In this document: positions 10,453 through 52,448 of the stretch, piece by piece
How the letters are laid out: each line of letters starts with the position of its first letter
Position numbering within the stretch: position 1 is the first letter of the stretch
Assembly: GCA_035550655.1 (NCBI GenBank)
Contig: DASZOU010000022.1
Span: 31,096-95,095 of the forward strand
DNA: 64,000 bases
Direction: 5' to 3'
Source: Mycobacteriales bacterium
Lineage (GTDB): Bacteria > Actinomycetota > Actinomycetes > JAFAQI01
The notes under the pieces: model-generated
What the model was told of the DNA's origin: nothing
What the model saw: only the letters and a program-made list of their open reading frames with translations
Database searches by the model: none
Position numbers and translations under genes: made by a program

Positions 10453-10521
10453 ACTGCTCTGCCCGGATTGGGCGCCAGAACACGGGTGCGAAGGTGATCA
10501 TCGGGGTAGAGATCATGCGAG

Positions 10522-12477
10522 ATGAGCATCGAGATCGCCCCACGCGCCGCCGTTGACCCGCATCAGCTTCGCCGCGTCCTCGATGGGCGCTGGGCGGACA
10601 CTCGCGAGCAGGTCCGCCAGCTTCTTCGCGACCCACGCCTGGCCCCCCGCCAAGGACTGAGCATCGACGAGCAGCGGCAACGCACGCTAGAAGGACTGCT
10701 CGCCGTGGCTGCGACCGACGGCCCGAAGCTGATGTTCCCGAAGGAGTGCGGCGGTCTCGACGAAGTGGGCGCCGGCGTGACCAGCTTCGAGACGCAGGCT
10801 CACGCCGACCTCTCCCTGCTCGTCAAGTGCGGGGTGCAGTTCGGGCTGTTCGGCGGCGCCATCCGCCACCTCGGTACCGCCCGCCACCACGAGCAGTACC
10901 TCCGCGACGTGATGAACGCGGAGCTGCTCGGCTGCTTCGCCATGACGGAGACCGGTCACGGCTCAGACGTCCAGTCGCTTCGCACGACCGCGACGTACGA
11001 CGCGACGACCCAGGAGTTCGTCGTCTGCACCCCCGACGACGACGCCGCCAAGAACTACATCGGCAACGCGGCGCGCGACGGCCGGCTGGCCGTCGTCTTC
11101 GCCCAGCTCTGCACCGCCGGCGAGGTACACGGTGTGCACGCGCTGCTGGTGCCGATCAGGGACGCCGCGGGCAACACCGCGCCGGGGGTGCGAATCGCCG
11201 ACGACGGCGAGAAAGCCGGACTGAACGGCGTCGACAACGGTCGCATCTGGTTCGACAACGTCCGGGTTCCGCGCGAAGCATTGCTCGACCGGTTCGGAGC
11301 GGTTTCGCCGGACGGCAGCTACTCGAGTCCCGTCGACAACGTCAACCGCCGCTTCTTCACCATGCTCGGCACGCTCGTGCAGGGGCGCATCAGCATCTCC
11401 GGCTCCGCGTTGTCCGCGACGAAGAACGCGCTGACGATCGCCGTCCGCTATGGCAACAGCCGCCGCCAGTTCAAGGCTCCTGACGCCGGCGAGGAGATCG
11501 TGGTGCTCGACTACCTCGCGCACCAGCGGGCGCTGCTGCCCGCGCTCGCAACCACCTACGCCTTGAGCTTCGCCCAAGCGGAGCTGGTGAGCGAGCTGCA
11601 CGACGTGCAGTCGGAGGCGAGCGACGAACAGGCGCGCCGACGGCTCGAGACGTTCGCTGCCGGACTGAAGGCGACGTCGACGTGGCATGCCACCGCCACC
11701 ATCCAGGCCTGCCGTGAGGCGTGTGGGGGCGCCGGCTATCTCTCGGAGAACCAGCTCGCGGGACTCAAGGCCGACACCGACGTCTTCACGACCTTCGAAG
11801 GTGACAACACCGTCCTGCTGCAGCTGGTGGCGAAGACGTTGCTGACGAACTACCAGGCGGAGTTCGGAGAGCTCGACACGATCGGCACCGCGCGCTTCGT
11901 CGCCGAGCAGGTGGCCGACATCGTCATCGAGCGGAGCGGTGCGCGAGGGATCGTGCAACGGCTCGTCGACGCGCTCCCCGGTACGTCGGACGACGAGACC
12001 AGCCTGCTCGACCGCGGCTACCAGATCTCACTGCTCGCCTGGCGCGAGAAGCACCTGCTGGAAGGCCTCGCGCGACGACTGCGCAAAGGCGTCGAAGCCG
12101 ATGCCGATCTCTTCGACGTCTTCAACTCGGCGCAGGACCACCTGCTCCTCGCCGCACGCGCCCACATTGACGCTCGCGTCCTCGAGGCGTTCGACACCGC
12201 ATTGAGCGCTGTGGAGGACGAGGCGGTCGCAGACCTGCTGAACCGCGTGTGCGACCTCCATGCGCTGTCGGTGATCGAGCGTGAGCGCGGCTGGTTCCTG
12301 GAGCACAACCGGCTGACGGCCAGCCGCAGCAAGCGAGTGACCGCCACGGTGAACGACCTCTGCCGCGAGCTGCGACCGCACGCCGATCTCCTGGTGGCGG
12401 CGTTCGGCATCCCGGATGAGCTCATCACCGCTCCGATCGCCTGCCGGCCCGCGGGCGCCGGCCCTCGGTTTGGTTGA
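10522..12477 (+). CDS. Acyl-CoA oxidase / acyl-CoA dehydrogenase family (ACOX-like, 651 aa)
   Basis: ACAD N/M/C domains (…CFAMTETGHGSDVQSL…, …GGAGY…) plus the C-terminal ACOX-type extension. Confidence 0.85.
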   Translation: MSIEIAPRAAVDPHQLRRVLDGRWADTREQVRQLLRDPRLAPRQGLSIDEQRQRTLEGLLAVAATDGPKLMFPKECGGLDEVGAGVTSFETQAHADLSLLVKCGVQFGLFGGAIRHLGTARHHEQYLRDVMNAELLGCFAMTETGHGSDVQSLRTTATYDATTQEFVVCTPDDDAAKNYIGNAARDGRLAVVFAQLCTAGEVHGVHALLVPIRDAAGNTAPGVRIADDGEKAGLNGVDNGRIWFDNVRVPREALLDRFGAVSPDGSYSSPVDNVNRRFFTMLGTLVQGRISISGSALSATKNALTIAVRYGNSRRQFKAPDAGEEIVVLDYLAHQRALLPALATTYALSFAQAELVSELHDVQSEASDEQARRRLETFAAGLKATSTWHATATIQACREACGGAGYLSENQLAGLKADTDVFTTFEGDNTVLLQLVAKTLLTNYQAEFGELDTIGTARFVAEQVADIVIERSGARGIVQRLVDALPGTSDDETSLLDRGYQISLLAWREKHLLEGLARRLRKGVEADADLFDVFNSAQDHLLLAARAHIDARVLEAFDTALSAVEDEAVADLLNRVCDLHALSVIERERGWFLEHNRLTASRSKRVTATVNDLCRELRPHADLLVAAFGIPDELITAPIACRPAGAGPRFG

Positions 12478-20965: not shown

Positions 20966-21676
20966 GTGGAGTCGGGCGGGGACTTGGCATTGCTGCGGAT
21001 GTCGGGCGTCTCCAAGCACTTCCGCCGCGGCCGCGAAGTCGTCGCCGCCGTCAACGACGTCAGTCTCGAGGTCCGCGCCGGTGAGTTCGTCAGCGTTGTC
21101 GGCCCGAGCGGGTCCGGCAAGTCGACGTTGCTGCATCTCGCCGGCGGTCTCGATCGCGCAGACACCGGCTCGGTGTGGGTGGACGGGCAGGACGTCTCGA
21201 CGCTGTCGGCGTCGGCCCTGGCGCGACTGCGTCGCCGGCACGTCGGATTCGTGTTCCAGTTCTTCCACCTGATCCCGAACCTGACGGTCGGTGAGAACGT
21301 CGCGCTGCCACTGGTCCTGGACGGCGGACGCCATGGTGACGATCGGGTCGCCGAGCTGATCGAACGGGTCGGCCTGGCGCCGCGAGCGCGGCACCTGCCG
21401 GGTGAGCTGTCGGGCGGCGAGATGCAGCGAGTGGCGATCGCGCGGGCGCTGGTCAACTCACCCCGCCTGATCCTCGCCGACGAGCCGACCGGCAACCTCG
21501 ACCGCGCGACCGGCGCCGAGATCCTCGCCGTACTGGAGGAGCAAGTCACCCAAGCGGGAGTGGCGCTGCTCATGGTCACGCACGACGAGGCCGCCGCCCG
21601 GCGCGCCGAGCGAACCCTGCACGTCGTTGACGGACAGCTGACCTCAACTCGGCGCGCCTCCGCCCGGCGGGGCTGA
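20966..21676 (+). CDS. ABC transporter ATP-binding protein (MacB/LolD-type)
   Basis: Walker A GPSGSGKST, Q-loop, signature LSGGEMQRV, Walker [12 protein letters not shown]. Confidence 0.9.
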   Translation: MESGGDLALLRMSGVSKHFRRGREVVAAVNDVSLEVRAGEFVSVVGPSGSGKSTLLHLAGGLDRADTGSVWVDGQDVSTLSASALARLRRRHVGFVFQFFHLIPNLTVGENVALPLVLDGGRHGDDRVAELIERVGLAPRARHLPGELSGGEMQRVAIARALVNSPRLILADEPTGNLDRATGAEILAVLEEQVTQAGVALLMVTHDEAAARRAERTLHVVDGQLTSTRRASARRG

Positions 21677-21677
21677 C

Positions 21678-24206
21678 GTGCTCCGGGTCGCCTACTGGTT
21701 GAACCTGCGCCAAGCCCGCCGACGTCCGCTGCGCGCGGCGCTCGCAGTGATCTCGATCGCCGCCGGAGCGTCGCTGGGTGTCTCCGTGCTCGTCATGACG
21801 GCGAGCGTGTCCGCCAGCTTCCACACCTTCGGCCGCCAGCTCGCCGGACCCGCACCACTGCGGATCGTGGGCGCCACATCCAACGGCGGCATCGACGAAA
21901 GCGTCCTCAACACGGTCGAGCGGACCCCGGGCGTGCAGACCGCCGTACCGGTCGTACAGGTCGTCACCTACGCCGGAAGCCGCGCCGATCCGCGGGCGGA
22001 GAGCATCCTCAGCCTCGGCATCGACTGCCGGCTGCAGGCGCTGGTCGGACGGTTCGGTTGCTCCCGGACCGGGCTGACCGCGTTGGGCGACGCGGGTGGC
22101 GTCGCGGTCAGTCCTCAGCTGGCGAGCCGGCTCGGCCCCGACGCCGCTATCCAGACCGACACCGGCACGATTGCGCTGCGCTCGGCGCTGCGGCTGCCGG
22201 CGCTGGCCCGGTTCAACCACGGCGCCGTGGCCGTGTTCCCGCTGCGCGAAGCGCAGCACCTGTTCGCCCGTACGCACCGCCTCGATGCGATCTACGTGAT
22301 CCCGGCGACAGGGGCCGACGTCCGCGACCTGCGCACCCGACTGCAGGCGGCCGTCGGCTCGTGGAACGGCGTGCTCACCGCAACCCAGCCGCCGCCTGCC
22401 ATCGGCATCTACACCGACACGATCCTGCCGCTCTTCGCGCTGCTCAGCCTGTTCGCTCTCGCCGTCGGCGGAATGCTGATCTTCAACATCTCCGCGCTCG
22501 CCATGGAAGAGCGGCGCCGCGAGCTCGCCCTCGTAGCCGCGCTCGGGGGGACCGCCCGGGTGGTCCGGCTCGGGGCGATGCTCGAGGGCGCCGCGCTCGG
22601 GCTGCTGGGCGGACTGCTCGGGGTGGCTGGCGGCACGCTGCTCGCCCGGCCATTGACGGCGAGCCTGTCGAAGTTCACGGTCCTGGTCGTCGGGGTGCGG
22701 ATCCCTGTCCACCTCACGGTTGGGGCGGTCCTCGCAGGGATCGCGCTCGGCGCGGTCGTCGGCGGGATCGCGGCCCTGATGTCGACGCGGCGGATCGGCC
22801 GGATCGACGTCGTCGCCGAGCTGTCGATGCGCGAGGAGACCTTCGACGCACAGCACCGCCGCAACGCCGTGATGGCCGGCGTCTTCATCGTGCTGTGCGT
22901 CTTGGGGTTCGCGGTCTGCTGGGTCGCTCAGCGCAACGGCGCCATCGAGCCGTGGCAGGCAAAGATCGCGCCCGTCGGCGTGCTGCTCGCGACGGTGTCG
23001 TCACTGCTCGCCTCGGCGTCGCTCGCGGCGGTGATCGCGGCCACCCTCGCGCGGCTCGTCCGTGGCTTCGACGGACCGCTTCGGCTCGGCATCGCGAACC
23101 TGGCGCGGCAGGGCCGGCGCGCCGGTGTGATGGCAGTCGCGGTGGGCGCCGCGGTGACGACGGCGTTCGTCATAGGCAGCACCCAAGCCGCCGCGAAGGC
23201 TGACATCGCCCACAGCATCGAGACCGGGCACCCGCAGGAGGTGTACGTCTCGACGCTGTCCCCCAACAACACGGTCAACATCGAGTCCAAGCCGACCGCG
23301 GCCCTCGGTGCTGCCCTCGGCCGCATCCCGGGCGTCGCACGGGTGGACCGCAGCGAGTTCGTCCTCAGCGGGCACGACAGCAGCCATTTGGTCGGGATCC
23401 TGGCCGCGACGTACCCGTGGCTGAACCTGCCGTTGATCGAGGGCAGCAAGAGCCCGCAGTCGTTCGCGTCCGGCCGGGTGCTGATCGGCGCTGCCCTCGC
23501 GCGAGACCGTGGGCTTCGCCCCGGGTCCACGATGCTCATCGACACCCCGACCGGCCGCAAACCGGTGACCGTCGGCGGCGTCTGGCGGGACGGCAACCTG
23601 GGCGGTCGCGCCGTCACCATCCCGATGTCGCTGTATCAGCGGCTCTTCGGCAGGCAGCCGGTGCAGAGCTTCGGGCTGATTCCGGTCCGCGGCCTCAGCG
23701 CCGCGGCGCTCGCCGACCGAGTCAGGGCAGCGAGCCTGCTTCCCGGACTGATCGTCGAAGATCCGGCGCAGTACGCCGCAGACATCTCCTCCTCCGTCAA
23801 CGACCAGCTGTCGCCGTTCACCGCGATGCAGCGCGGGCTGCTTCTCGTCGCGTTCGTCGCCGTGCTCTCGACACTGCTCCTGGTCGGTGTGCAGCGCCGG
23901 CGCGAGCTCGGCCTCCTGGCAGCAGTCGGAATGGAACCGTCACAGCTTGCCCGGATGACGATTGCCGAGGGTCTGTGCGCCGGGGTCGTCGGCCTCGCGC
24001 TGGCGTTGGTCGGGTCGGTCGTGATCCAGACCGGCTTCCACCTCGTCTTGCCGATCATCATCGGGTTCAAGGACCCGCTCCGCTACGACTTCGTCAGCTT
24101 CGCGGTATGGGCGGCCGCCTCGCTCGTCCTGGTCGGCGCCGCATCGGTGCTACCGGCCTGGCGCAACGCACGCGTACCAGTCCTCGAATCCCTGCAATAC
24201 GAGTAA
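21678..24206 (+). CDS. FtsX-like ABC permease with two FtsX/MacB permease domains (842 aa)
   Basis: Two repeats of the 4-TM FtsX module, each preceded by a large extracytoplasmic domain. Starts immediately after the ATPase gene. Confidence 0.85.
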   Translation: MLRVAYWLNLRQARRRPLRAALAVISIAAGASLGVSVLVMTASVSASFHTFGRQLAGPAPLRIVGATSNGGIDESVLNTVERTPGVQTAVPVVQVVTYAGSRADPRAESILSLGIDCRLQALVGRFGCSRTGLTALGDAGGVAVSPQLASRLGPDAAIQTDTGTIALRSALRLPALARFNHGAVAVFPLREAQHLFARTHRLDAIYVIPATGADVRDLRTRLQAAVGSWNGVLTATQPPPAIGIYTDTILPLFALLSLFALAVGGMLIFNISALAMEERRRELALVAALGGTARVVRLGAMLEGAALGLLGGLLGVAGGTLLARPLTASLSKFTVLVVGVRIPVHLTVGAVLAGIALGAVVGGIAALMSTRRIGRIDVVAELSMREETFDAQHRRNAVMAGVFIVLCVLGFAVCWVAQRNGAIEPWQAKIAPVGVLLATVSSLLASASLAAVIAATLARLVRGFDGPLRLGIANLARQGRRAGVMAVAVGAAVTTAFVIGSTQAAAKADIAHSIETGHPQEVYVSTLSPNNTVNIESKPTAALGAALGRIPGVARVDRSEFVLSGHDSSHLVGILAATYPWLNLPLIEGSKSPQSFASGRVLIGAALARDRGLRPGSTMLIDTPTGRKPVTVGGVWRDGNLGGRAVTIPMSLYQRLFGRQPVQSFGLIPVRGLSAAALADRVRAASLLPGLIVEDPAQYAADISSSVNDQLSPFTAMQRGLLLVAFVAVLSTLLLVGVQRRRELGLLAAVGMEPSQLARMTIAEGLCAGVVGLALALVGSVVIQTGFHLVLPIIIGFKDPLRYDFVSFAVWAAASLVLVGAASVLPAWRNARVPVLESLQYE

Positions 24207-24296
24207 GGCCAGTGACGGACGCGGGCGCCCTTCGTGGCGTCGGCGGGACCGACTCCAAGATCGTTTCCGTCATAGCTCGGCCGTAAGTTCCGCTGC

Positions 24297-24782
24297 GTGA
24301 AGACGCGGACATGCACTGAGTGTCGGCGCATCTTCCAGCCGTCAAGCGGCCATCTGAGATGTCCTTCATGTAGATCGAAGGGTGTCTGCGGTTGCGGTAA
24401 GCCCAAACAAGTCAAGTCGTCGACCTGCGCCGACTGCCGTACCGAGGGCGGCTCATCCAACGGCAACTGGCGCGGTGGACGAACACGACACAAGGCCGGC
24501 TACATCTTGGTCAAAGCGCGCTTGCATCCACGGGGCGGCTCAAGCGGCTACGTGTTCGAGCACATCCTTGTCGCGGAAGAGCTCCTTGGCCGGTACCTGG
24601 CGCCGGACGAGACGATCCACCATCGAAATGGCGTCCGCGACGACAACCGTCCGGAGACCCTCGAGCTGTGGACGCGACCGCAGCCTTCCGGCATCCGCGC
24701 ACGCGATGCGCTCGCCTGGGCGCACGAGATCATCGCGCGCTACGAGGGAACGGGGTCGCCTCCAACAACGCTCACATCGTGA
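24297..24782 (+). CDS. HNH endonuclease with N-terminal Cys-rich zinc ribbon
   Basis: GTG start. CxxC…CxxC…CGCG…CxxC then HNH core GYVFEHILVAEELLGRYLAPDETIHHRNGVRDDNRPENLELW. It sits 98 bp from the 3-prime end of ssrA on the opposite strand. Confidence 0.75.
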   Translation: MKTRTCTECRRIFQPSSGHLRCPSCRSKGVCGCGKPKQVKSSTCADCRTEGGSSNGNWRGGRTRHKAGYILVKARLHPRGGSSGYVFEHILVAEELLGRYLAPDETIHHRNGVRDDNRPETLELWTRPQPSGIRARDALAWAHEIIARYEGTGSPPTTLTS

Positions 24783-24842
24783 GCGCTCATGTTCCTCGCG
24801 AAGGCGGAGCCTTCGCTCGTCAACGAACTTGATCGCCTCGGA

Positions 24843-24858
24843 AGAGCGCAAGCGCTCT
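24843..24858. terminator. Short hairpin AGAGCGC-AA-GCGCTCT between the convergent HNH gene and ssrA
   Basis: 7-bp perfect stem read directly. Lies just downstream of the tmRNA 3-prime end (minus strand) and the HNH stop (plus strand). Confidence 0.3.
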
Positions 24859-24879
24859 CCGCTCGGCTCACGGCGTTCG

Positions 24880-25236
24880 TGGAGGCGGCGGGATTCGAAC
24901 CCGCGTCCTTCGGCGGTTCATCAAGGCTTCTCCGGGCGCAGCCTGTTGCGGTTTTCTCAGCTCCAGCGGCGGCACAGGCGCCCCGCTGCGAGCTCAGTCA
25001 CTGTTTGATTTCCCTTGGATCCCCGTGACCGGGATCCGCGGTGGAGCCTCCTATCGATGCCAGGTCCTAGAGCGGAGGCGCCCCTAGGCTGACAGCTCTG
25101 CTACCTGTCAGGCAGCGAGAGCGAGCCGGTTGTTATCGGCATTTATTGAAGTTGCCGCGAGTGGTTTGCGAGATCACGCGACATCCTCGGCCCGCTTCCC
25201 TTGAATCGACGTCCGAAGTCGAAACCGTTCGCCCCC
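24880..25236 (-). ncRNA. ssrA: tmRNA (transfer-messenger RNA, SsrA), ~357 nt, CCA not encoded
   Basis: Reverse complement begins GGGGGCGAACGGTTTCGACTTCGGACGTCGATTCAAGGGAAGCGGGCCGAGG and ends …GGGTTCGAATCCCGCCGCCTCCA (tRNA-Ala-like acceptor with a G3:U pair). The internal tag ORF at 25108-25140 (minus) reads GCC GAT AAC AAC CGG CTC GCT CTC GCT GCC TGA, giving A-DNNRLALAA-stop. Confidence 0.9.
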
Positions 25237-25314
25237 TCGTGTGTTCGGTGATGAGTACAACGTCGAGCGTACCCCTCGGCTTCCCACCAGGAACCTCGGA
25301 TTTCTGCCACCCCA

Positions 25315-25331
25315 ATACCCCAGGGGGGTAT
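25315..25331. promoter_or_regulatory. RicR/CsoR-type operator ATACCCC-AGG-GGGGTAT (TACCC-N5-GGGTA) upstream of the permease-csoR operon
   Basis: Perfect 7-bp inverted repeat read directly. It matches the published RicR/CsoR GC-rich pseudopalindrome class and lies 58 bp upstream of the permease ATG. Confidence 0.6.
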
Positions 25332-25388
25332 TTTGCAAGGGTGGGCACGCTCTCGACGATCTGGCACAGCCTCGACGAGGGCTTCTTC

Positions 25389-26579
25389 ATGTTCTGGCAG
25401 ACGCTCTGGGCTCTCGTGCTCGGCTTCGTGCTCTCCGGCGCCGTCCAGGCCCTGGTGTCACGTCGCGCGATGGTGCGCACCATGGGCGATCACGGCCCCG
25501 CCGCGATCACCCGCGCGTCCCTGTTCGGGATGGCGAGCTCCTCCTGCTCCTACGCCGCCAGCGCGCTGGCTCGGTCGCTGTTCGACCGCGGCGCCGACTT
25601 CACCACGGCAATCGTCTTCATGGTCGCCTCGACGAACCTCGTCATCGAGCTCGGTCTCGTGATGTGGCTCCTGATCGGCTGGCAGCTCGCCGCTGCCGAG
25701 TTCCTCGGCGGCGCGATCATGATCGTCCTGCTCGCAGCGCTCCTGCCGAAGGCGGCGAGCGCCTCGCTCCTCGAAACAACGAGAGCGCACCGAGATGACG
25801 CGCAAGCGGAGCCTGAAGACTCCGAACCCGACGCCGGCTTCCGCGCTCGGTTGCAGGATCCCGCTCGGCGTCGGGCCGCCGCCCGCTACACGTTGTCGGA
25901 CCTGTCCATGCTGCGCCGCGAGATCGTCATCGGCTTCGTGGTCGCCGGGTTCCTCGCGGTCGGCGTCCCGACTCGGGTGTGGTCGGCCGTCTTCATCCAC
26001 GGTCACGGCGCCCTGACCGCGATCGAGAACGCCCTCGTCGGCCCTGCCGTCGCGATGGTGAGCTTCGTCTGCTCGATCGGCAACGTGCCGCTCGCCGCCG
26101 CGCTCTGGCAACGCGGCGTGAGCTTCGGCGGCGTAATCGCCTTCGTCTTCGCCGACCTGCTCTCGCTGCCGCTCGTCCTCATCTACCGCAAGCTGTACGG
26201 CGGCCGGCTGACACTGCGGCTCGTGGCGGTGCTCTGGTTCGCCATGAGCAGCGCCGGGCTTCTCACCGAGGTCGTCATGCGCGCCCTCGGCGGGATTCCC
26301 GGTCATCGGCCGCGGCTCGTCGCGGCCGAGCACTTCGCCTGGAACCACACGACCGTGCTGAACATCATTGCTCTGGTCGGCTTCGCGCTCGTCGTCCGCG
26401 CCGGACGCGGCGCCAGGGCGGACGACGGCGGCTCGCCGTACGCGATCGATCCGGTGTGCGGCATGCAGGTCGAGCGCGCGCACGCGCCCGCGTCGTACGG
26501 CGACGGCGTGACCCAGGTCTACTTCTGCAGCACTCGATGCCGGGATCACTACGTGACGGACAGGGAGACGGTGGCATGA
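25389..26579 (+). CDS. YraQ/ArsP-like (DUF318) permease fused to a C-terminal YHS/TRASH metal-binding domain
   Basis: Polytopic permease with the family Cys motif (…MASSSCSYAAS…). The C-terminus DPVCGMQV…YFCSTRCRDHY is a YHS/TRASH domain. The track's longer N-terminus (from 25146) would run through the tmRNA gene, so the start is set at ATG 25389 (an in-frame GTG at 25341 is also possible). Confidence 0.8.
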   Translation: MFWQTLWALVLGFVLSGAVQALVSRRAMVRTMGDHGPAAITRASLFGMASSSCSYAASALARSLFDRGADFTTAIVFMVASTNLVIELGLVMWLLIGWQLAAAEFLGGAIMIVLLAALLPKAASASLLETTRAHRDDAQAEPEDSEPDAGFRARLQDPARRRAAARYTLSDLSMLRREIVIGFVVAGFLAVGVPTRVWSAVFIHGHGALTAIENALVGPAVAMVSFVCSIGNVPLAAALWQRGVSFGGVIAFVFADLLSLPLVLIYRKLYGGRLTLRLVAVLWFAMSSAGLLTEVVMRALGGIPGHRPRLVAAEHFAWNHTTVLNIIALVGFALVVRAGRGARADDGGSPYAIDPVCGMQVERAHAPASYGDGVTQVYFCSTRCRDHYVTDRETVA

Positions 26580-26866
26580 CCACAACGCGCGGCTACACCG
26601 CGGACAAGGCGGCGTACCAGCGCCGGTTGCGCCGGATCGAGGGACAGGTGCGCGGCATCGCGCGGATGGTGGACGACGACGAGTACTGCATCGACGTACT
26701 GACCCAGGTCGCAGCCGTCACCAAGGCGCTGCAGGCGGTCGCCCTCGGCCTGCTGGAGGACCACCTCGGACACTGCGTGCGCGAGGCCGTTGCGGACGGC
26801 GGTGACGATGCCGACGTGAAGCTGCGCGAGGCCTCCGAAGCCATCGCCAGACTGGTTCGCTCGTAG
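26576..26866 (+). CDS. csoR: CsoR/RicR-family copper-sensing transcriptional repressor (DUF156)
   Basis: 96 aa; YCIDVLTQVAAV…HLGHCV contains the Cys-His-Cys Cu(I) ligand set. ATGA overlap with the permease stop. Confidence 0.85.
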   Translation: MTTTRGYTADKAAYQRRLRRIEGQVRGIARMVDDDEYCIDVLTQVAAVTKALQAVALGLLEDHLGHCVREAVADGGDDADVKLREASEAIARLVRS

Positions 26867-26950
26867 CGCGGTTGCGCGGCGACTTTCCACAGTCACGGGC
26901 CGAAATCCCTTTATTCACAAGACAATTCAGGGCTTGACACTAGGCATTCT

Positions 26951-26966
26951 TCGAACATATGTTCGA
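26951..26966. promoter_or_regulatory. LexA SOS box (Cheo-type) TCGAACATATGTTCGA overlapping the -10 of the REP13E12 gene promoter
   Basis: Perfect match to the actinobacterial/mycobacterial consensus TCGAAC-N4-GTTCGA. TTGACA at 26934-26939 and TATGTT at 26958-26963 with an 18-nt spacer form a sigma-70-like promoter. Confidence 0.7.
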
Positions 26967-26969
26967 GTC

Positions 26970-28280
26970 GTGCTGGACCCCGAGTTCGATCGCATCTTCG
27001 GAAAGACGGATGCGCGGCTCGCTGTGCTGGAAGAGATGCCGGTGGGTGGCGCTCTCGCATCGGCACTCGTCGCGCTGCGGAGCCTGCAGATGGACGGGTA
27101 CGCCGCGGTCCGGGTTCATGCCCTGTGGTCGAAGGTCATCGCGTGGGCGGCGGCTCAACAGATGATCGCCACGAATGACTGCGTCAGCGGTGTGCGCGGA
27201 CTCGTCGGACCGCCGGACGATCCCCACGAGGCCTACGTGCTCGCCGCGCAGGAGATTGCGTGCGCCACCTCCGTCCCCTACCCGACAGCGATGGCGCAGA
27301 TCGAGCTCGTCGACCGGATCGGGGAATGCATGCCCGAGAGCTGGTCGGCACTCGACCGGGGCGACATCTCGTTGAACCACGTGAAGGCATGTCACCGCGC
27401 GACGCGCAACTGCCCGCCGAGGGTCGCCGCCGCGGTCGAAGCACAGGTGATCCCGCAGGCGGTTGCGCGTGGCTGGACGCCGAGCGAGCTCGCTCGCGCG
27501 GCGCGCAAGCTCATCATCACGATCGATCCGGAGGGCGCCGCGCAGCGCGAGGCGGAAGCCAAGACCAGGTCCGACGTCGAGTTCTTCCCGGGCGAGGACG
27601 GCATGGCCGGACTGAACTCGTTCGGCCCGGCTCCGCTGGTCCGAGAGATGGCCGACGTGATCGACGATCGTGCCGCAACGATGAAGCGTGAGGGCGACAA
27701 CCGATCGATCGGCCTGCGGCGTTTCCAGGCGCTGTACGACGCCGTCGTCGGCTCGTCGGCCGGCTCCAAGCCGAGTCCCGCCCGCGCGCACACGCTGCTG
27801 ACCGTCCCGCTCACCACGGTGCTCGGGCTTGATGACCAACCCGGCGAGCTGGCCGGCTACGGGCCGGTCACTGCGGCAACCGCGCGCCGGATCGCCGCAG
27901 ACTCGACGTTGAGCCGGCTCGTCACCGACCCGATGTCCGGTACGCCGATCGACCTGGGCCGAAAGTACAAGCCGTCGCGTCTACTGCGCGACCTCGTCAA
28001 GGCCACGCAGCCACGGTGCTCGATGATCGGCTGCTCCCGGCCGGCGTACCAGTGCGAGATGGACCACCGACTCGAGCACAACCGGGGCGGTGACACCAAT
28101 CCACAGAACCTGCAACCACTGTGCAAGCTGCATCACCAGCTGAAGACGAAGCAGCGCTGGAAGGTCGGCATCAACGCCGACGGCGAGCAGGAGTGGACCA
28201 GCTACCTCGGCTTCCGCTACGTCTCGCGCGACCGGGACCCGCGGGCCGGCGACCCCGACCCGCCGCGGCAGGTGGCGTGA
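26970..28280 (+). CDS. REP13E12-family protein (DUF222 N-terminal domain + C-terminal HNH nuclease)
   Basis: DUF222 body followed by CSMIGCSRPAYQCEMDHRLEHNRGGDTNPQNLQPLCKLHHQLK (HNH). The start is uncertain; in-frame GTG 26970 is used, and the track's TTG at 26934 lies inside the promoter. Confidence 0.8.
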   Translation: MLDPEFDRIFGKTDARLAVLEEMPVGGALASALVALRSLQMDGYAAVRVHALWSKVIAWAAAQQMIATNDCVSGVRGLVGPPDDPHEAYVLAAQEIACATSVPYPTAMAQIELVDRIGECMPESWSALDRGDISLNHVKACHRATRNCPPRVAAAVEAQVIPQAVARGWTPSELARAARKLIITIDPEGAAQREAEAKTRSDVEFFPGEDGMAGLNSFGPAPLVREMADVIDDRAATMKREGDNRSIGLRRFQALYDAVVGSSAGSKPSPARAHTLLTVPLTTVLGLDDQPGELAGYGPVTAATARRIAADSTLSRLVTDPMSGTPIDLGRKYKPSRLLRDLVKATQPRCSMIGCSRPAYQCEMDHRLEHNRGGDTNPQNLQPLCKLHHQLKTKQRWKVGINADGEQEWTSYLGFRYVSRDRDPRAGDPDPPRQVA

Positions 28281-28287
28281 CGAGAAC

Positions 28288-28764
28288 TCAGACCCAGCCT
28301 TTTGAGCGCCTGCCGGTCGCGCGCTCGATCTCACGCGCAGCGTCCCGCGCGGCGAGGGTCTGCCGCTTGTCGTAGGCACGCTTTCCGCGCGCCAAGGCGA
28401 TCTCGACCTTCACCTTGCCGTCCTTGAAGTACAGCTGCAGCGGGACGAGCGTGAGGCCCGACTCCTTGGTCTTGCCGACCAGCTTCGCGATCTCCTCGCG
28501 GTGAAGCAGCAGCTTGCGGCGCCGGCGCGGCTCATGGTTGGTCCAGGTGCCCTGCGTGTACTCGGGGATGTGCAGGTTCTCCAGCCACACCTCGCCGTCA
28601 CGCACTGTGGCGTAGGAGTCGACCAGCGACGCCCGCCCCGCACGCAGCGACTTCACTTCGGTTCCCTGCAGCACGACGCCTGCCTCGTAGACGTCCTCGA
28701 TCGCGTAGTCGTGGCGAGCCTTGCGGTTCTGCGCGATGAGCTTGCGGCCGGACTCCTTCACCAT
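28288..28764 (-). CDS. smpB: SsrA-binding protein SmpB
   Basis: 158 aa; [32 protein letters not shown]…LENLHIPEY…LLLHREE is the canonical SmpB sequence. Confidence 0.95.
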
Positions 28765-28779
28765 GGGTCAACAGCGCCG

Positions 28780-29943
28780 TCAGCCGGCGCTGCCGGCGTC
28801 GGCGGTGAGACCGGAGAGCACCTCGATGGCGTGCTGGTAGAGCACCGACTGCGGAACCTCTGGGCCGAGGATGACGTCGGGAGTGATGCCGACGCCGTCG
28901 AGCGATCGTCCCTGGGGCGTCAGGTAGTGCCCGACGGTGAGCTCGATGTCGGATCCGTCCGAGAGCCGGTCAGGAGCCTGCACGCTGCCCTTGCCGAACG
29001 TCTGCGATCCGACGATCACCGCGCGGCCGCGGTCCTGCAGCGCACCCGCGACGATCTCCGCGGCACTCGCCGTACCGCCGTTCACCAGGACCACGAGCGG
29101 GATCGCGGTGTTGCCGCGACCACCGGTCGTACCGAGCGGAAGCGGTGCCGAGCCCCGCTGCACATAGCTCACCACGGTGCCGCGATCGAGGAACACCGAC
29201 GCGGTCCGGACCGCCTCGTCCAGCAGGCCGCCGGGGTCGTCCCGCAGGTCGAGCACGATGCCGCGCAGGTGGTCGCGCTCGGCGGCGCGCACCCGAGCGC
29301 GCACCCAGTCACCGACACCACGCGTGAACATCGCGACCCGCAGCCGCTCGACGCCCGGCGCGAGACGTTGCGCGCTCACGTCACCGTTGCGGATCGTCGC
29401 CCGCGACAGCACGTCCGTGACCGACCGGCCGCCGCGATCCACGCGGACGGTCACGCTGGTGCCCGGGCGCCCCCACAGCGCGTCGGCGACGTCCGCGACC
29501 GTCCGGCCGGTCACCGGCAGGCCCGCCACCGCGGTGAGCACGTCTCCCACCCGCAGCCCGGCGCGTGCGGCAGGCGAGCCGCTCTGCACGCTCTCGATCC
29601 GCAGCACACCCGAGGCGGCACGGCGGACCCAGATCCCGACCCCGCTGTAGGAACCGGAGAGGGTCTGCTCGTACCGGGCGAACTCCGTCGGCTCGTAGTA
29701 CGCCGACCACGGGTCACCCAGCGCCCGAAGCATGCCGTCCACCGCAGCCTGCTGCAGCACCGATTCCGGCACCGGCTTGGAAGCGTGCGACTCGATCGCC
29801 CTGACCGCCTGGTCGAGCACGGTGGCGCGACCTGCTGCGGGCGTCCCGGCACCACGATGCAGGGCGGCACCCGTCGCGACCCCGGCGCCGAACACCGCCA
29901 CGGTCGCCGCGAGGGCAAGCGGCCGGACGCTCGCGAGCCGCAT
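28780..29943 (-). CDS. S41-family C-terminal processing peptidase (Ctp-like)
   Basis: Signal/TM N-terminus, PDZ domain (GLRVGDVLTAVAG) and S41 catalytic region (…GGTASAAEIVAGALQD…, Ser/Lys dyad context). Confidence 0.85.
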   Translation of the reverse strand: MRLASVRPLALAATVAVFGAGVATGAALHRGAGTPAAGRATVLDQAVRAIESHASKPVPESVLQQAAVDGMLRALGDPWSAYYEPTEFARYEQTLSGSYSGVGIWVRRAASGVLRIESVQSGSPAARAGLRVGDVLTAVAGLPVTGRTVADVADALWGRPGTSVTVRVDRGGRSVTDVLSRATIRNGDVSAQRLAPGVERLRVAMFTRGVGDWVRARVRAAERDHLRGIVLDLRDDPGGLLDEAVRTASVFLDRGTVVSYVQRGSAPLPLGTTGGRGNTAIPLVVLVNGGTASAAEIVAGALQDRGRAVIVGSQTFGKGSVQAPDRLSDGSDIELTVGHYLTPQGRSLDGVGITPDVILGPEVPQSVLYQHAIEVLSGLTADAGSAG

Positions 29944-29946
29944 CGC

Positions 29947-30846
29947 CTACACCCTCAGATGGCGCTGCAGCGTGAGGAAGGACGCGATCGCCGGTAGCAG
30001 GATGCCGATGAGGATGACGAGCGGCAGCGCCTCCCACAACGTCGACCACTGGCCGAAGGGCGCGAGCACCCGCGTCGCCAGCGTGCTGGAGATGTACCAC
30101 CGGACGAGCAGGAGCAACACCACCGCGAGACCGGAACCGGCGACCCCCGCCGCGGTGCCCTCGAGCACGAACGGCGCCTGGATGTAGAAGTCCGATGCGC
30201 CGACCAGCCGCATGATGCCGGTCTCCCGGCGACGGCTGAACGCCGCCACCCGCATCGAGTTGTAGATCAGCAGGCAGGTGGAGATCAGCAGCAGGACAGT
30301 GAGCAGCAGCGCGCCGAGCGTCACGTGGTGGAAGAAGGCGAACAGCCGCTTGAGGGTCGACGAGGCGTTCTGGACCGACTGCACGCCCGGCGCTCGGCCC
30401 ACGGCGCTCGTCACCACCGCGAACTGGTGCGGGTCCTTGAGCTTCACCGCGAAGGACTCGGGCAGCTGGTCCTGCGTCGTCACGCGGACCAGGTCAGGGT
30501 TGCCCTTGAACTCTTCCTTGAACCGCTTGTACGCGTCGGCCTGCGAGATGTAGGTGACGTGCTCGACCTGCGGCAGCCCGTTGAGCGTGTTCTCGATGTT
30601 GGTGCGGTCCGCGTCGGTGAGGCAGTTGGAGCCGGCCTGCGGCGTTCCGCACACGGGCTGCAGGTAGACCGACACCTCGATCTGGTTGAGCAGATCGTGC
30701 TCGAGCTGGTTGGCGCCGACCCGGATGATCAGCGCGATGCCGAGCAAGGTCAGTGAGATCGCGACCGTCATGACCGCCGCGATCGTCATCGTCACGTTTC
30801 GCTTGAGGCCGATCCCGACCTCTTGCAGCACGAACTCGGTGCGCAC
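29947..30846 (-). CDS. ftsX: Cell-division ABC transporter permease FtsX
   Basis: 299 aa, 4 TM with a large periplasmic loop. Located between ftsE and the S41 peptidase, as in other actinobacteria. Confidence 0.9.
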   Translation of the reverse strand: MRTEFVLQEVGIGLKRNVTMTIAAVMTVAISLTLLGIALIIRVGANQLEHDLLNQIEVSVYLQPVCGTPQAGSNCLTDADRTNIENTLNGLPQVEHVTYISQADAYKRFKEEFKGNPDLVRVTTQDQLPESFAVKLKDPHQFAVVTSAVGRAPGVQSVQNASSTLKRLFAFFHHVTLGALLLTVLLLISTCLLIYNSMRVAAFSRRRETGIMRLVGASDFYIQAPFVLEGTAAGVAGSGLAVVLLLLVRWYISSTLATRVLAPFGQWSTLWEALPLVILIGILLPAIASFLTLQRHLRV

Positions 30847-30858
30847 GCCAGGCCTCCG

Positions 30859-31548
30859 CTACTGCGCGTAGCCGTAGACGCCGCGGCTCTGGTCGCGGGT
30901 GACGTGCCCGCCTTCCAGCTCCACGACGCGGCGGCGCATCGAGTCGACGATGTTCGAGTCGTGCGTGGCCATCACGACCGTCGTGCCGGTCCGGTTGATC
31001 CGGTCGAGCAGCTTCATGATGCCGATGCTCGTCGCCGGGTCGAGGTTTCCGGTGGGCTCGTCGGCGAGCAGCACGCGCGGCCGGTTCACGAATGCGCGCG
31101 CGATCGCAACGCGCTGCTGCTCACCACCGGAGAGCTCGTCGGGCTTGCGGTTCTCCTTGCCGTCCAGCCCGACGAGGCTGAGCACCTCAGGCACGACCTT
31201 GGCAACCACGGAGCGGGGCTTGCCGATGACGTCGAGCGCGAACGCGACGTTCTCCGCGACGGTCTTGTTGGGCAGCAGCCGGAAGTCCTGGAACACGGTG
31301 CCGATCTGCCGGCGCAGCGCCGGCACCCGCCAGTGCGACAGTCGCGACAGCTGCTTGCCGGCGACCCAGATCTCGCCCTTGGTCGGCGTCTCCGCCTTCA
31401 GGGCAAGCCGCAGGAAGGTCGACTTCCCCGATCCCGACTGGCCGACGAGGAAGACGAACTCACCCTTGTCGACGTCGACCGAGACGTTGTCGAGGGCTGG
31501 CCTTGTGCTCGTCGGGTAGACCTTGGTCACCGACTCGAAGCGAATCAT
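30859..31548 (-). CDS. ftsE: Cell-division ATP-binding protein FtsE
   Basis: [11 protein letters not shown]…GQSGSGKST…[14 protein letters not shown]…[11 protein letters not shown] is canonical FtsE. Confidence 0.95.
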
Positions 31549-52218: not shown

Positions 52219-52448
52219 CGTTGGCCCATCCTTCGTAGTGACAGGTCGGGCCGGTTTCGCCATTGCTCCCCGCCGGGCTATGGCGACCAGTTCGTCGCCC
52301 GGTGGTTCATCGCTCCCAATTGCGACGCTAGGCACGAGGACTGGCGAATACCACGGGACAAGCGCCCGACTCGATGACCCGAATGCGGGGCGAAAAAACC
52401 ACCCGTCGTAGCTATTGCGCCGACGTCAGACACGCGGCTAACGGCAAG

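Follow-up and report, generated by a model that had tools for sequence, protein, structure and literature searches.

A compact HNH endonuclease gene at the 3' end of actinobacterial tmRNA genes: a candidate homing element

In a 64,000-nucleotide stretch of a Mycobacteriales genome (contig DASZOU010000022.1, positions 31,096 to 95,095; hereafter the window), ssrA, the gene for transfer-messenger RNA (tmRNA), lies apart from smpB, and a small gene for an HNH_3 nuclease converges on its 3' end. We find that this nuclease belongs to what is apparently a large, undescribed family of selfish genes that occur almost only at tmRNA 3' ends, in Actinobacteria and in phages. A literature search of incomplete coverage turned up no account of such an HNH family at this site, and an earlier one is possible. 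The genes between smpB and ssrA are mostly old residents, and we read the locus as a mosaic in which three modules, unrelated to one another, surround ssrA. We think it fairly probable that a copper module, an SOS-regulated DUF222-HNH gene, and a small HNH-only mobile element at the ssrA 3' end together explain the locus. For the last of these we favor a specific model whose chances seem to us evenly balanced. An integrase-free HNH_3 element of about 0.6–0.7 kb would home into the tmRNA genes of Actinomycetota and of phages that carry one, bringing a replacement T-arm/acceptor segment that keeps the gene intact, while the displaced native segment would become a portable 25-nt homology arm; a hairpin at the junction may add a regulatory or immunity role.

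The tie between the HNH family and tmRNA genes is close. The window's HNH protein has more than 1000 homologues at 58–73% identity, mostly from soil metagenomes, from which we assembled 83 loci (three by exact look-up and 80 as the best matches of a metagenome pattern scan). A tmRNA gene lies directly 3' of the HNH gene in 67 of the 74 informative loci. Among all 83, a complete convergent tmRNA gene is present in 53, at a median of 41 nt (range 16–226) from the end of the HNH alignment; a tmRNA gene cut by the contig end is recognized by Rfam in seven, and a T-arm/acceptor motif precedes the contig end in another seven. Nine loci have too little flank to be informative, and seven lack a tmRNA gene despite enough flank, three of them retaining a stub of the tmRNA 3' end. 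Stub loci of this kind are expected if an island later separated the element from the body of the tmRNA gene, or if the unit traveled and left that gene behind. The hosts span at least two Actinomycetota classes, with the window in Actinomycetes and, as judged by SmpB, L145 in Acidimicrobiales and L146 in Ilumatobacteraceae. For comparison, an SmpB scan with one genome per species yielded 80 loci, the closest from uncultured Frankiaceae/Mycobacteriales metagenome-assembled genomes (MAGs). Tested in this reverse direction, tmRNA loci picked for the similarity of their SmpB never contain the HNH gene, and this includes the closest relatives, L001 and L002.

The junction between the HNH and tmRNA genes is an 18-bp inverted repeat whose outer 8 bp are the 3' strand of the tmRNA acceptor stem plus the discriminator base. 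At a typical locus the last HNH codons read CACCTCCA-ACAATGCTCA, a 6–13-nt loop follows, and TGAGCACTCT-TGGAGGTG then leads directly into the tmRNA gene. Conservation is at the DNA level, irrespective of the frame that the HNH open reading frame (ORF) takes. The outer arm covaries with the host tmRNA, appearing as CACCTCCA, CAGCTCCA, CATCTCCA, or CGCCTCCA in different loci and as CGACTCCA in a phage contig. Compensatory changes affect 8 of 17 stem pairs and 97.7% of cells are paired, values reached by none of 500 shuffles; controls slid along the sequence gave 36–55%. The loci had been selected on the outer 8 nt, and the unbiased test of covariation is that of the inner nine pairs only. HNH-bearing loci without a tmRNA gene can also keep the hairpin and a tmRNA 3' stub, as in L083 (5447–5500, with a 21-nt stub), L152/L153, L081, L111, and L113.

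The inverted repeat goes with the HNH gene. A perfect complement of the tmRNA's last 8 nt lies within 90 nt in 35 of 53 occupied loci but in none of 66 scorable HNH-free tmRNA loci. On this ground we reject an ordinary terminator of the host tmRNA gene as an explanation of the hairpin, and, combined with the 67-of-74 association, it rules out chance adjacency of the two genes. Wobbles in the stem are biased: read in the tmRNA sense, G.T outnumber A.C by 30 to 8, a hint that the trailer of the pre-tmRNA folds into an RNA hairpin, which might act as a bidirectional terminator.

The junction also misleads gene callers. In the database ORFs P0004, P0014, P0015, and P0023, the predicted HNH gene runs through the hairpin and antisense into the tmRNA gene, acquiring a spurious WRWRDSNPRP tail. 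This tail is the tmRNA T-arm translated antisense, a recurrent annotation artefact. Hundreds of ORFs of the family extend antisense into tmRNA in this way, and displaced tmRNA 3' fragments mimic the attachment (att) sites of islands, both of which matter for annotation.

Phages supply signs of movement. Streptomyces phage MulchMansion encodes the closest phage homologue, gp182 (54% identity), whose gene points toward the tmRNA gene of the phage across a 15-nt gap, in convergent orientation. MulchMansion is the only one of 86 BE-cluster phages sharing the region that carries the gene; Angela and LilMartin, 99.5% identical to it in the flanks, have no HNH gene. In the MulchMansion allele, the native 23–25 nt tmRNA 3' end (TGGAGATGGCGGGAGTCGAACCCGC) has been shifted to a position about 27 nt ahead of the HNH start, and a new copy (TGGAGATGGGGGGATTCGAACCCCCG) sits on the tmRNA body. 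The new copy differs by three changes, two of which are compensatory within the T stem. A 59-amino-acid ORF, gp183 (L164:2255–2434), has no Pfam match and lies in a segment of about 190 nt that is extra relative to Angela, between a membrane-protein gene and the displaced tmRNA 3' fragment.

In MulchMansion and also in seven bacterial loci the HNH gene is flanked by a direct repeat, 22–26 nt long, of the tmRNA 3' end; in the bacterial loci a near-perfect second copy lies 48–121 nt upstream of the HNH start (p <= 0.016 for each). Phage contigs in IMG/VR hold further full-length homologues at tmRNA 3' ends, convergent in L168, L170, and L183 and co-directional in L171, L176, L177, and L180; in L177 the direct repeat is present with the HNH gene in this other orientation. 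None of the compact HNH units contains an integrase. The MulchMansion insertion, about 0.75 kb, consists of the HNH gene and the 59-amino-acid ORF, with no annotated integrase and no integrase match.

Presence and absence with clean boundaries are seen twice, for MulchMansion against Angela and LilMartin and for the window against L002. In addition, the HNH gene stays with the tmRNA gene when the outer flank differs (L102 against L137). A second pair of loci, L102 and L103, is 99.9–100% identical over at least 6.5 kb that cover the HNH gene and reach about 80 nt into the tmRNA gene from its 3' side, and then 77–89% identical through the rest of the tmRNA gene and smpB. We considered this pair as a homing co-conversion tract and did not use it as evidence, given that an identical block of at least 6.5 kb could be a larger recombination, with its breakpoint inside ssrA, or an assembly chimera.

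The window carries its own member of the family as part of a lineage-specific insertion (Table 1). The 673-bp insertion, in which the HNH gene is the only gene, is absent from L002. There only 3 nt separate the tmRNA end from the stop codon of the ATP-binding cassette (ABC) transporter permease, a clean empty site; L001 has a different gene in its place. Family members share the invariant motif EH...HH.NG..DNR.ENL, and the window copy matches PF13392. Within the motif's ENL, the window protein has the substitution N121T, which is unique, Asn being present in 193 of 196 members. Whereas the hairpin abuts the tmRNA 3' end directly in most members, here a spacer intervenes. The possible eroded distal copy of the ssrA 3' end came from local alignment of the region upstream of the HNH gene (score 18, empirical p = 0.135, non-significant). 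It ends about 40–49 nt upstream of the HNH start; intact copies elsewhere lie at 48–49 nt (L127/L133) and 60 nt (L112). The window copy is probably an immobilized relic, because it combines N121T, a junction disrupted by the 90-nt spacer, and an eroded distal repeat.

An AlphaFold model of the HNH protein is of moderate quality (predicted local distance difference test, pLDDT, 73). Its best fold match in the PDB is the homing endonuclease I-HmuI, a weak one (E = 0.08, probability 0.89), and a PDB sequence search gave only a marginal match of the zinc-ribbon region to the I-TevI zinc finger. No NCBIfam model covers either HNH protein of the window. A homing-type insertion at the ssrA 3' end had been one suggestion of a first-pass annotation of this DNA, and the empty site in L002 and the tmRNA specificity of the family support it. 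Its other suggestion, an old and decayed integrase-type integration, is not needed, since the HNH relatives form complete 0.6–0.7 kb units without an integrase.

How might such a unit move? In the model we propose, the HNH endonuclease would cut tmRNA genes that lack the element, at a site close to the 5' boundary of the T-arm. An occupied allele would then serve as the repair template, with homology provided on one side by the tmRNA body and on the other by the duplicated T-arm/acceptor 3' end. The donor 3' end, the hairpin, and the HNH gene would be copied in together, rebuilding the RNA gene and displacing the native 3' end to the far side. The hairpin would probably terminate transcription in both directions, for ssrA as well as for the HNH gene that converges on it. 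This predicted scheme would reproduce the MulchMansion allele exactly, with a tmRNA that should function without any intron.

Several points weigh against the homing model. The mechanism is read from the anatomy of the loci, and the inverted repeat may have the roles given above as candidate functions only. A distal repeat is not detectable in 48 of the 55 bacterial copies. The homologue loci are the 80 best matches of a pattern scan and so represent the close family only (at least 55% identity). A homology arm of 25 nt is near the lower limit for RecA-dependent recombination. Direct repeats of 25 nt from a tRNA-like 3' end are also a signature of insertion by an integrase, which could act in trans. 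The likeness to I-HmuI comes from a moderate model and a weak match. Finally, branches of the HNH tree sort mostly according to the tag type of the host tmRNA, so that either much of the family's history is vertical or transfer stays among relatives. We examined rampant cross-lineage transfer and set it aside, as the tree follows the tag groups and the one apparent outlier, L117, is a partial ARAGORN call.

That tree is the natural starting point for a different reading, which we regard as unlikely though worth weighing. The HNH gene could be a domesticated, vertically inherited, and repeatedly lost partner of ssrA that acts as a terminator or insulator, shapes the pre-tmRNA 3' end, or guards the attachment site. 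Its broad congruence with the tag groups would then be expected, as would ORFs that are intact, with about 50 invariant residues, in hosts as distant as Acidimicrobiia. The covariation of the inverted repeat with the acceptor stem and its wobble bias, which favors a hairpin in tmRNA-sense RNA, fit as well, and so does the retention of the HNH gene beside tmRNA as the outer flank changes. Yet the gene is missing from L001, L002, and all 66 tmRNA loci of named relatives, and it occurs in a single one of 86 near-identical phages. Domestication also leaves the direct duplication of the tmRNA 3' end around the gene and the two orientations in phages unaccounted for. HNH identity, moreover, plateaus at 62–73% whatever the identity of the tmRNA genes.

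Less probable still is that the HNH gene is the last remnant of a decayed integrase island or prophage in ssrA, or miniature cargo that integrases specific for tmRNA genes move in trans. Integrases are classically known to use ssrA as a target (PMC11915505). The 22–26 nt repeats in MulchMansion and the seven bacterial loci would suit such an origin, and L083 and L152/L153, with only a tmRNA 3' stub beside the HNH gene, look as if islands had inserted later. Against this, neither the 673-bp insertion of the window nor the MulchMansion insertion contains an integrase, and no att repeat in the window reaches significance. One compact unit, with HNH as its sole gene, is found again and again, in 67 loci, and independent decay would not have left one and the same gene each time. 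The first-pass annotation had likewise reported no integrase and no clear att repeat, and our searches agree. In a Pfam scan of ORFs in the stretch that begins at the ABC transporter and ends at the S41 peptidase/ftsX region, no integrase family was matched. Two 24–25-mers from the ssrA 3' end, allowed up to three mismatches, and general repeat finding revealed no further copy of that end in the 64-kb window.

We turn to the other side of ssrA, where the same annotation had described a 3.5-kb insertion splitting smpB from ssrA. The split itself is real: three genes on the opposite strand, encoding an ArsP_1 permease, a CsoR-family repressor, and a DUF222-HNH protein, lie between the two, and the solitary HNH gene lies at the ssrA 3' side. 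The measured separation is 3.05 kb rather than 3.5 kb. The assigned gene identities, a copper-type CsoR/RicR repressor with a permease, an SOS-box REP13E12-like DUF222-HNH gene, and a zinc-ribbon HNH gene, are supported by Pfam and motif evidence.

Comparison with relatives does not support a single insertion. Among the 80 closest species smpB and ssrA are adjacent in 27 and split on the same strand by 0.8–9.6 kb in 39, and in several more they are over 5.7 kb apart or on opposite strands. The distance ranges from about 115 bp in Micromonospora through about 5.3 kb in Amycolatopsis and 7–10 kb in Geodermatophilus to 0–4.6 kb in Frankiaceae-like MAGs. A concatenated FtsE, FtsX, and SmpB tree places the window, L001, L002, L010, and L014 in one clade (87–92% identity) with L004 and L007 as sisters. 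When the orthologous intervals are compared by tblastn of the window proteins, L002 has smpB, DUF222-HNH, repressor, permease, and ssrA in the window's own order, the very observation that the first-pass annotation had named as one that would refute an insertion. L001, the closest relative, has the repressor and permease only; L004 has Amidohydro_2, repressor, permease, and a PKD-domain protein; and L014 has Amidohydro_2 followed by DUF222-HNH. An Amidohydro_2 gene (PF04909) directly follows smpB in about 39 loci from Pseudonocardiaceae, Geodermatophilaceae, and MAGs (including L003, L004, L007, and L014, where it spans 10474–11364), and no homologue exists in the window. Lineages in which smpB and ssrA are split typically have this gene after smpB. 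It appears to be the ancestral smpB neighbor, lost from the window's branch.

Parsimony suggests a stepwise history. The ancestral order would have been smpB and the amidohydrolase gene, with ssrA further downstream. The copper pair would have been in place before the clade separated from L004 and L007; the DUF222-HNH gene would have been acquired at the base of the immediate clade and later lost in L001, and the amidohydrolase gene would have been lost on the window's branch. That the permease, repressor, and DUF222-HNH gene arrived as one recent insertion into an adjacent smpB-ssrA pair is very improbable and already refuted by the comparative data: the shared opposite strand of the three genes and the adjacency of smpB and ssrA in Micromonospora and in the related MAG L008 speak for it, but relatives carry the gene content in differing combinations at the same place, gene identities to relatives track those of the flanking genes, guanine-plus-cytosine content along the window has no island-like step, and a split pair is the majority state. 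The smpB-ssrA adjacency is not ancestral in this part of Actinomycetota, and a split needs comparison with relatives before it is called an insertion.

The permease and the repressor form a copper module. The repressor ATG overlaps the permease stop codon (ATGA), and the permease probably starts at ATG 25389 or GTG 25341. The permease ends in a Cys-rich, YHS/TRASH-like tail and has weak NCBIfam matches to the SO_0444 Cu/Zn efflux and SaoE families. The repressor carries C38, H63, and C67, by sequence the Cu(I) ligand set. It scores 154.1 bits against the NCBIfam RicR model, below the cut-off of 175 and far above its own FrmR and RcnR scores, and is best called RicR-like. It is 82–91% identical in L001, L002, and L004, where, as in the window, the pair lies between smpB and ssrA; a permease orthologue is also found in L007. 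The TACCC and GGGTA arms of a putative operator upstream of the permease are invariant in these four genomes, while the surrounding intergenic DNA is divergent. A copper-sensing operon under a conserved TACCC-N5-GGGTA operator is therefore a well-supported prediction. The operator lies about 80 nt from the tmRNA 5' end and serves the opposite strand (25237–25331), which brings the ssrA and the copper-regulated promoters into a close divergent arrangement. The pair is best read as vertically inherited within the Frankiaceae-like clade and not as selfish DNA.

The nearest characterized counterpart of this module is the RicR regulon of Mycobacterium tuberculosis, in which RicR has a similar palindrome, TACCCCGCTGGGTA, in its own promoter and controls a regulon that includes the putative permease Rv2963 (PMC3944814). 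The two share a CsoR-family repressor with Cys38 and the C-H-C ligands, a TACCC...GGGTA palindrome, and a permease as a regulated gene. They differ in that repressor and permease here form one operon with the permease first, and in that the window repressor falls under the RicR cut-off and the window permease bears the YHS/TRASH-like tail.

The third gene of the interval encodes a DUF222 domain with a C-terminal HNH domain. The SOS box TCGAAC-N4-GTTCGA occurs as a perfect copy only once in the 64-kb window, just ahead of this gene, and the same box lies upstream of the L002 orthologue. This box is an experimentally defined mycobacterial LexA site, and six 13E12-family genes of M. tuberculosis are LexA-bound in vivo (PMC3381160). 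It is a sound inference that the gene is a REP13E12-like gene under predicted SOS (LexA) control. Four of the five clade members have it (the window, L002 at 65% identity, L010, and L014); L001 and L004 lack it. Judged by gene content, it is specific to the immediate clade and adjoins smpB where most relatives have Amidohydro_2. The window holds no further DUF222-HNH copy, and no boundary repeats mark the edges of the gene.

A DUF222-HNH gene of 32% identity also lies between smpB and ssrA, on the opposite strand and with no obvious SOS box, in a distant Actinomycetota MAG (L040:4243–5679). We considered whether such genes target this gap; six matches in 1.6 Mb of loci, four of them orthologous, are compatible with chance, and the L040 case is probably a coincidence. 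The M. tuberculosis REP13E12/13E12 family (Rv0336, Rv0515, Rv1702c) resembles the window gene in its DUF222 and C-terminal HNH domains and in the consensus SOS box at the promoter. In contrast to that family, the window gene is a single copy within 64 kb, and its host belongs to a Frankiaceae-like MAG lineage.

Table 1. Features around ssrA in the window; positions count from its first nucleotide
Feature	Position	Strand	Support and remarks
ABC transporter	20966–24206	+	ATPase ORF 20966–21676
ABC transporter permease (FtsX-like)	21678–24206	+	PF02687; native neighbor of the ssrA 3' end
Lineage-specific insertion, 673 bp	24207–24879		HNH element plus spacer, between ABC permease stop and tmRNA 3' end
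Possible eroded distal ssrA 3' copy	24235–24256	+	TGGCGTCGGCGGGACCGACTCC against TGGAGGCGGCGGGATTCGAACCC
HNH_3 gene, 161 amino acids	24297–24782	+	PF13392; two N-terminal Cys4 zinc ribbons; convergent on ssrA 3' end
Outer inverted-repeat arm, CGCCTCCA	24757–24764	+	Exact reverse complement of the final 8 nt of ssrA as read on the plus strand (24880–24887, TGGAGGCG)
Inner hairpin, ACAACGCTCA-catcg-TGAGCGCTCA	24765–24789		HNH stop codon inside; fits family consensus ACAAYGCTCA-loop-TGAGCRYTCT
90-nt spacer with two further hairpins	24790–24879		Separates element hairpin from tmRNA end; atypical for the family
ssrA (tmRNA)	24880–25236	-	ARAGORN 24879–25236; Rfam RF00023 24877–25236, 154.4 bits against a gathering score of 47
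Putative RicR/CsoR-type operator, ATACCC-CAGGG-GGGTAT (TACCC-N5-GGGTA)	25315–25331		About 60 nt upstream of the permease start
ArsP_1-family permease	25389–26579	+	PF03773, 204 bits; ORF 25146–26579
CsoR/RicR-type Cu(I) repressor	26576–26866	+	PF02583, 102 bits
Promoter-like TTGACA	26934–26939	+	
Perfect mycobacterial-type SOS box, TCGAACATATGTTCGA	26951–26966		Just before the probable GTG start
DUF222-HNH gene	26970–28280	+	PF02720, 71.6 bits; PF01844, 22.9 bits; ORF 26934–28280; probable start GTG 26970
smpB	28288–28764	-	PF01668, 217 bits
S41/PDZ C-terminal processing peptidase	28780–29943	-	Between ftsX and smpB
ftsX	29947–30846	-	
ftsE	30859–31548	-	

ARAGORN reads the ssrA tag as ADNNRLALAA, the CCA is not encoded, and the discriminator base at the 3' end of the mature tmRNA is position 24880. 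prfB lies on the same minus strand as ftsE, ftsX, the S41/PDZ peptidase gene, and smpB. The ftsE-ftsX-smpB backbone had been called intact; all three genes are there, but the backbone itself is interrupted in the window's lineage by the S41/PDZ peptidase gene. This gene is common to the Frankiaceae-like MAGs L001–L004, L008–L012, L014, and L018 and absent from Amycolatopsis, Micromonospora, and others. Two further matches lie elsewhere in the window. A 92-nt "tRNA-Asp" called by ARAGORN at 21172–21263 (plus strand) falls inside the ABC ATPase ORF, where Rfam sees no tRNA, and is probably a false positive. Rfam also matches a c-di-GMP-II-GAG riboswitch aptamer at 52241–52325 on the minus strand (42.6 bits against a gathering score of 40).

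If the homing model is right, the HNH family represents a third way of parasitizing ssrA, beside integrase islands and the rarer group I introns, and a route for a homing endonuclease into an RNA gene that needs no intron. The question can be tested with the cultured phages MulchMansion, Angela, and LilMartin, and the enzyme's long, conserved target could be of use as a tool. Published work describes integrase islands in ssrA and also group I introns, some of which carry LAGLIDADG genes (PMC11915505), and HNH genes have been reported within tRNA clusters (PMC6582537).

Set against these known systems, the HNH family fits two established kinds, the free-standing homing endonuclease and the ssrA-targeting element. 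With the free-standing homing endonucleases of phages, such as SegB in the T4 tRNA gene region and I-HmuI, it shares a small stand-alone nuclease gene beside a conserved tRNA or similar RNA gene and presence or absence between near-identical genomes. Its HNH (beta-beta-alpha-metal) fold recalls I-HmuI, the best PDB match of the model, and its modular zinc-finger DNA-binding parts recall I-TevI. Unlike those enzymes, it would have the tmRNA gene as its target, with the gene's 3' end rebuilt by a 25-nt duplication instead of an intron or intergenic insertion. Its inverted repeat, moreover, includes the final 8 nt of the target and covaries with them; the family resides mainly in bacterial chromosomes across a phylum, and its cleavage activity is a prediction.

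The integrase islands and prophages of ssrA (Williams, 'Traffic at the tmRNA gene'; the Islander database) share its target, the 3' part of the tmRNA gene, and the outcome, in which the element supplies the gene with a new 3' end and the native one is left at a distance as a direct repeat. The HNH unit differs in having no tyrosine or serine integrase, in its size of 0.6–0.75 kb, and in encoding an HNH endonuclease as its only recognizable protein. Group I introns that interrupt the T-loop of tmRNA, a number of them with LAGLIDADG homing endonuclease genes (PMC11915505), are likewise selfish elements at the ssrA T-arm that follow a homing logic. The HNH element, by contrast, contains no intron or ribozyme (an Rfam scan found tmRNA only) and encodes an HNH nuclease, and it would keep the gene intact by duplication where the introns do so by splicing.

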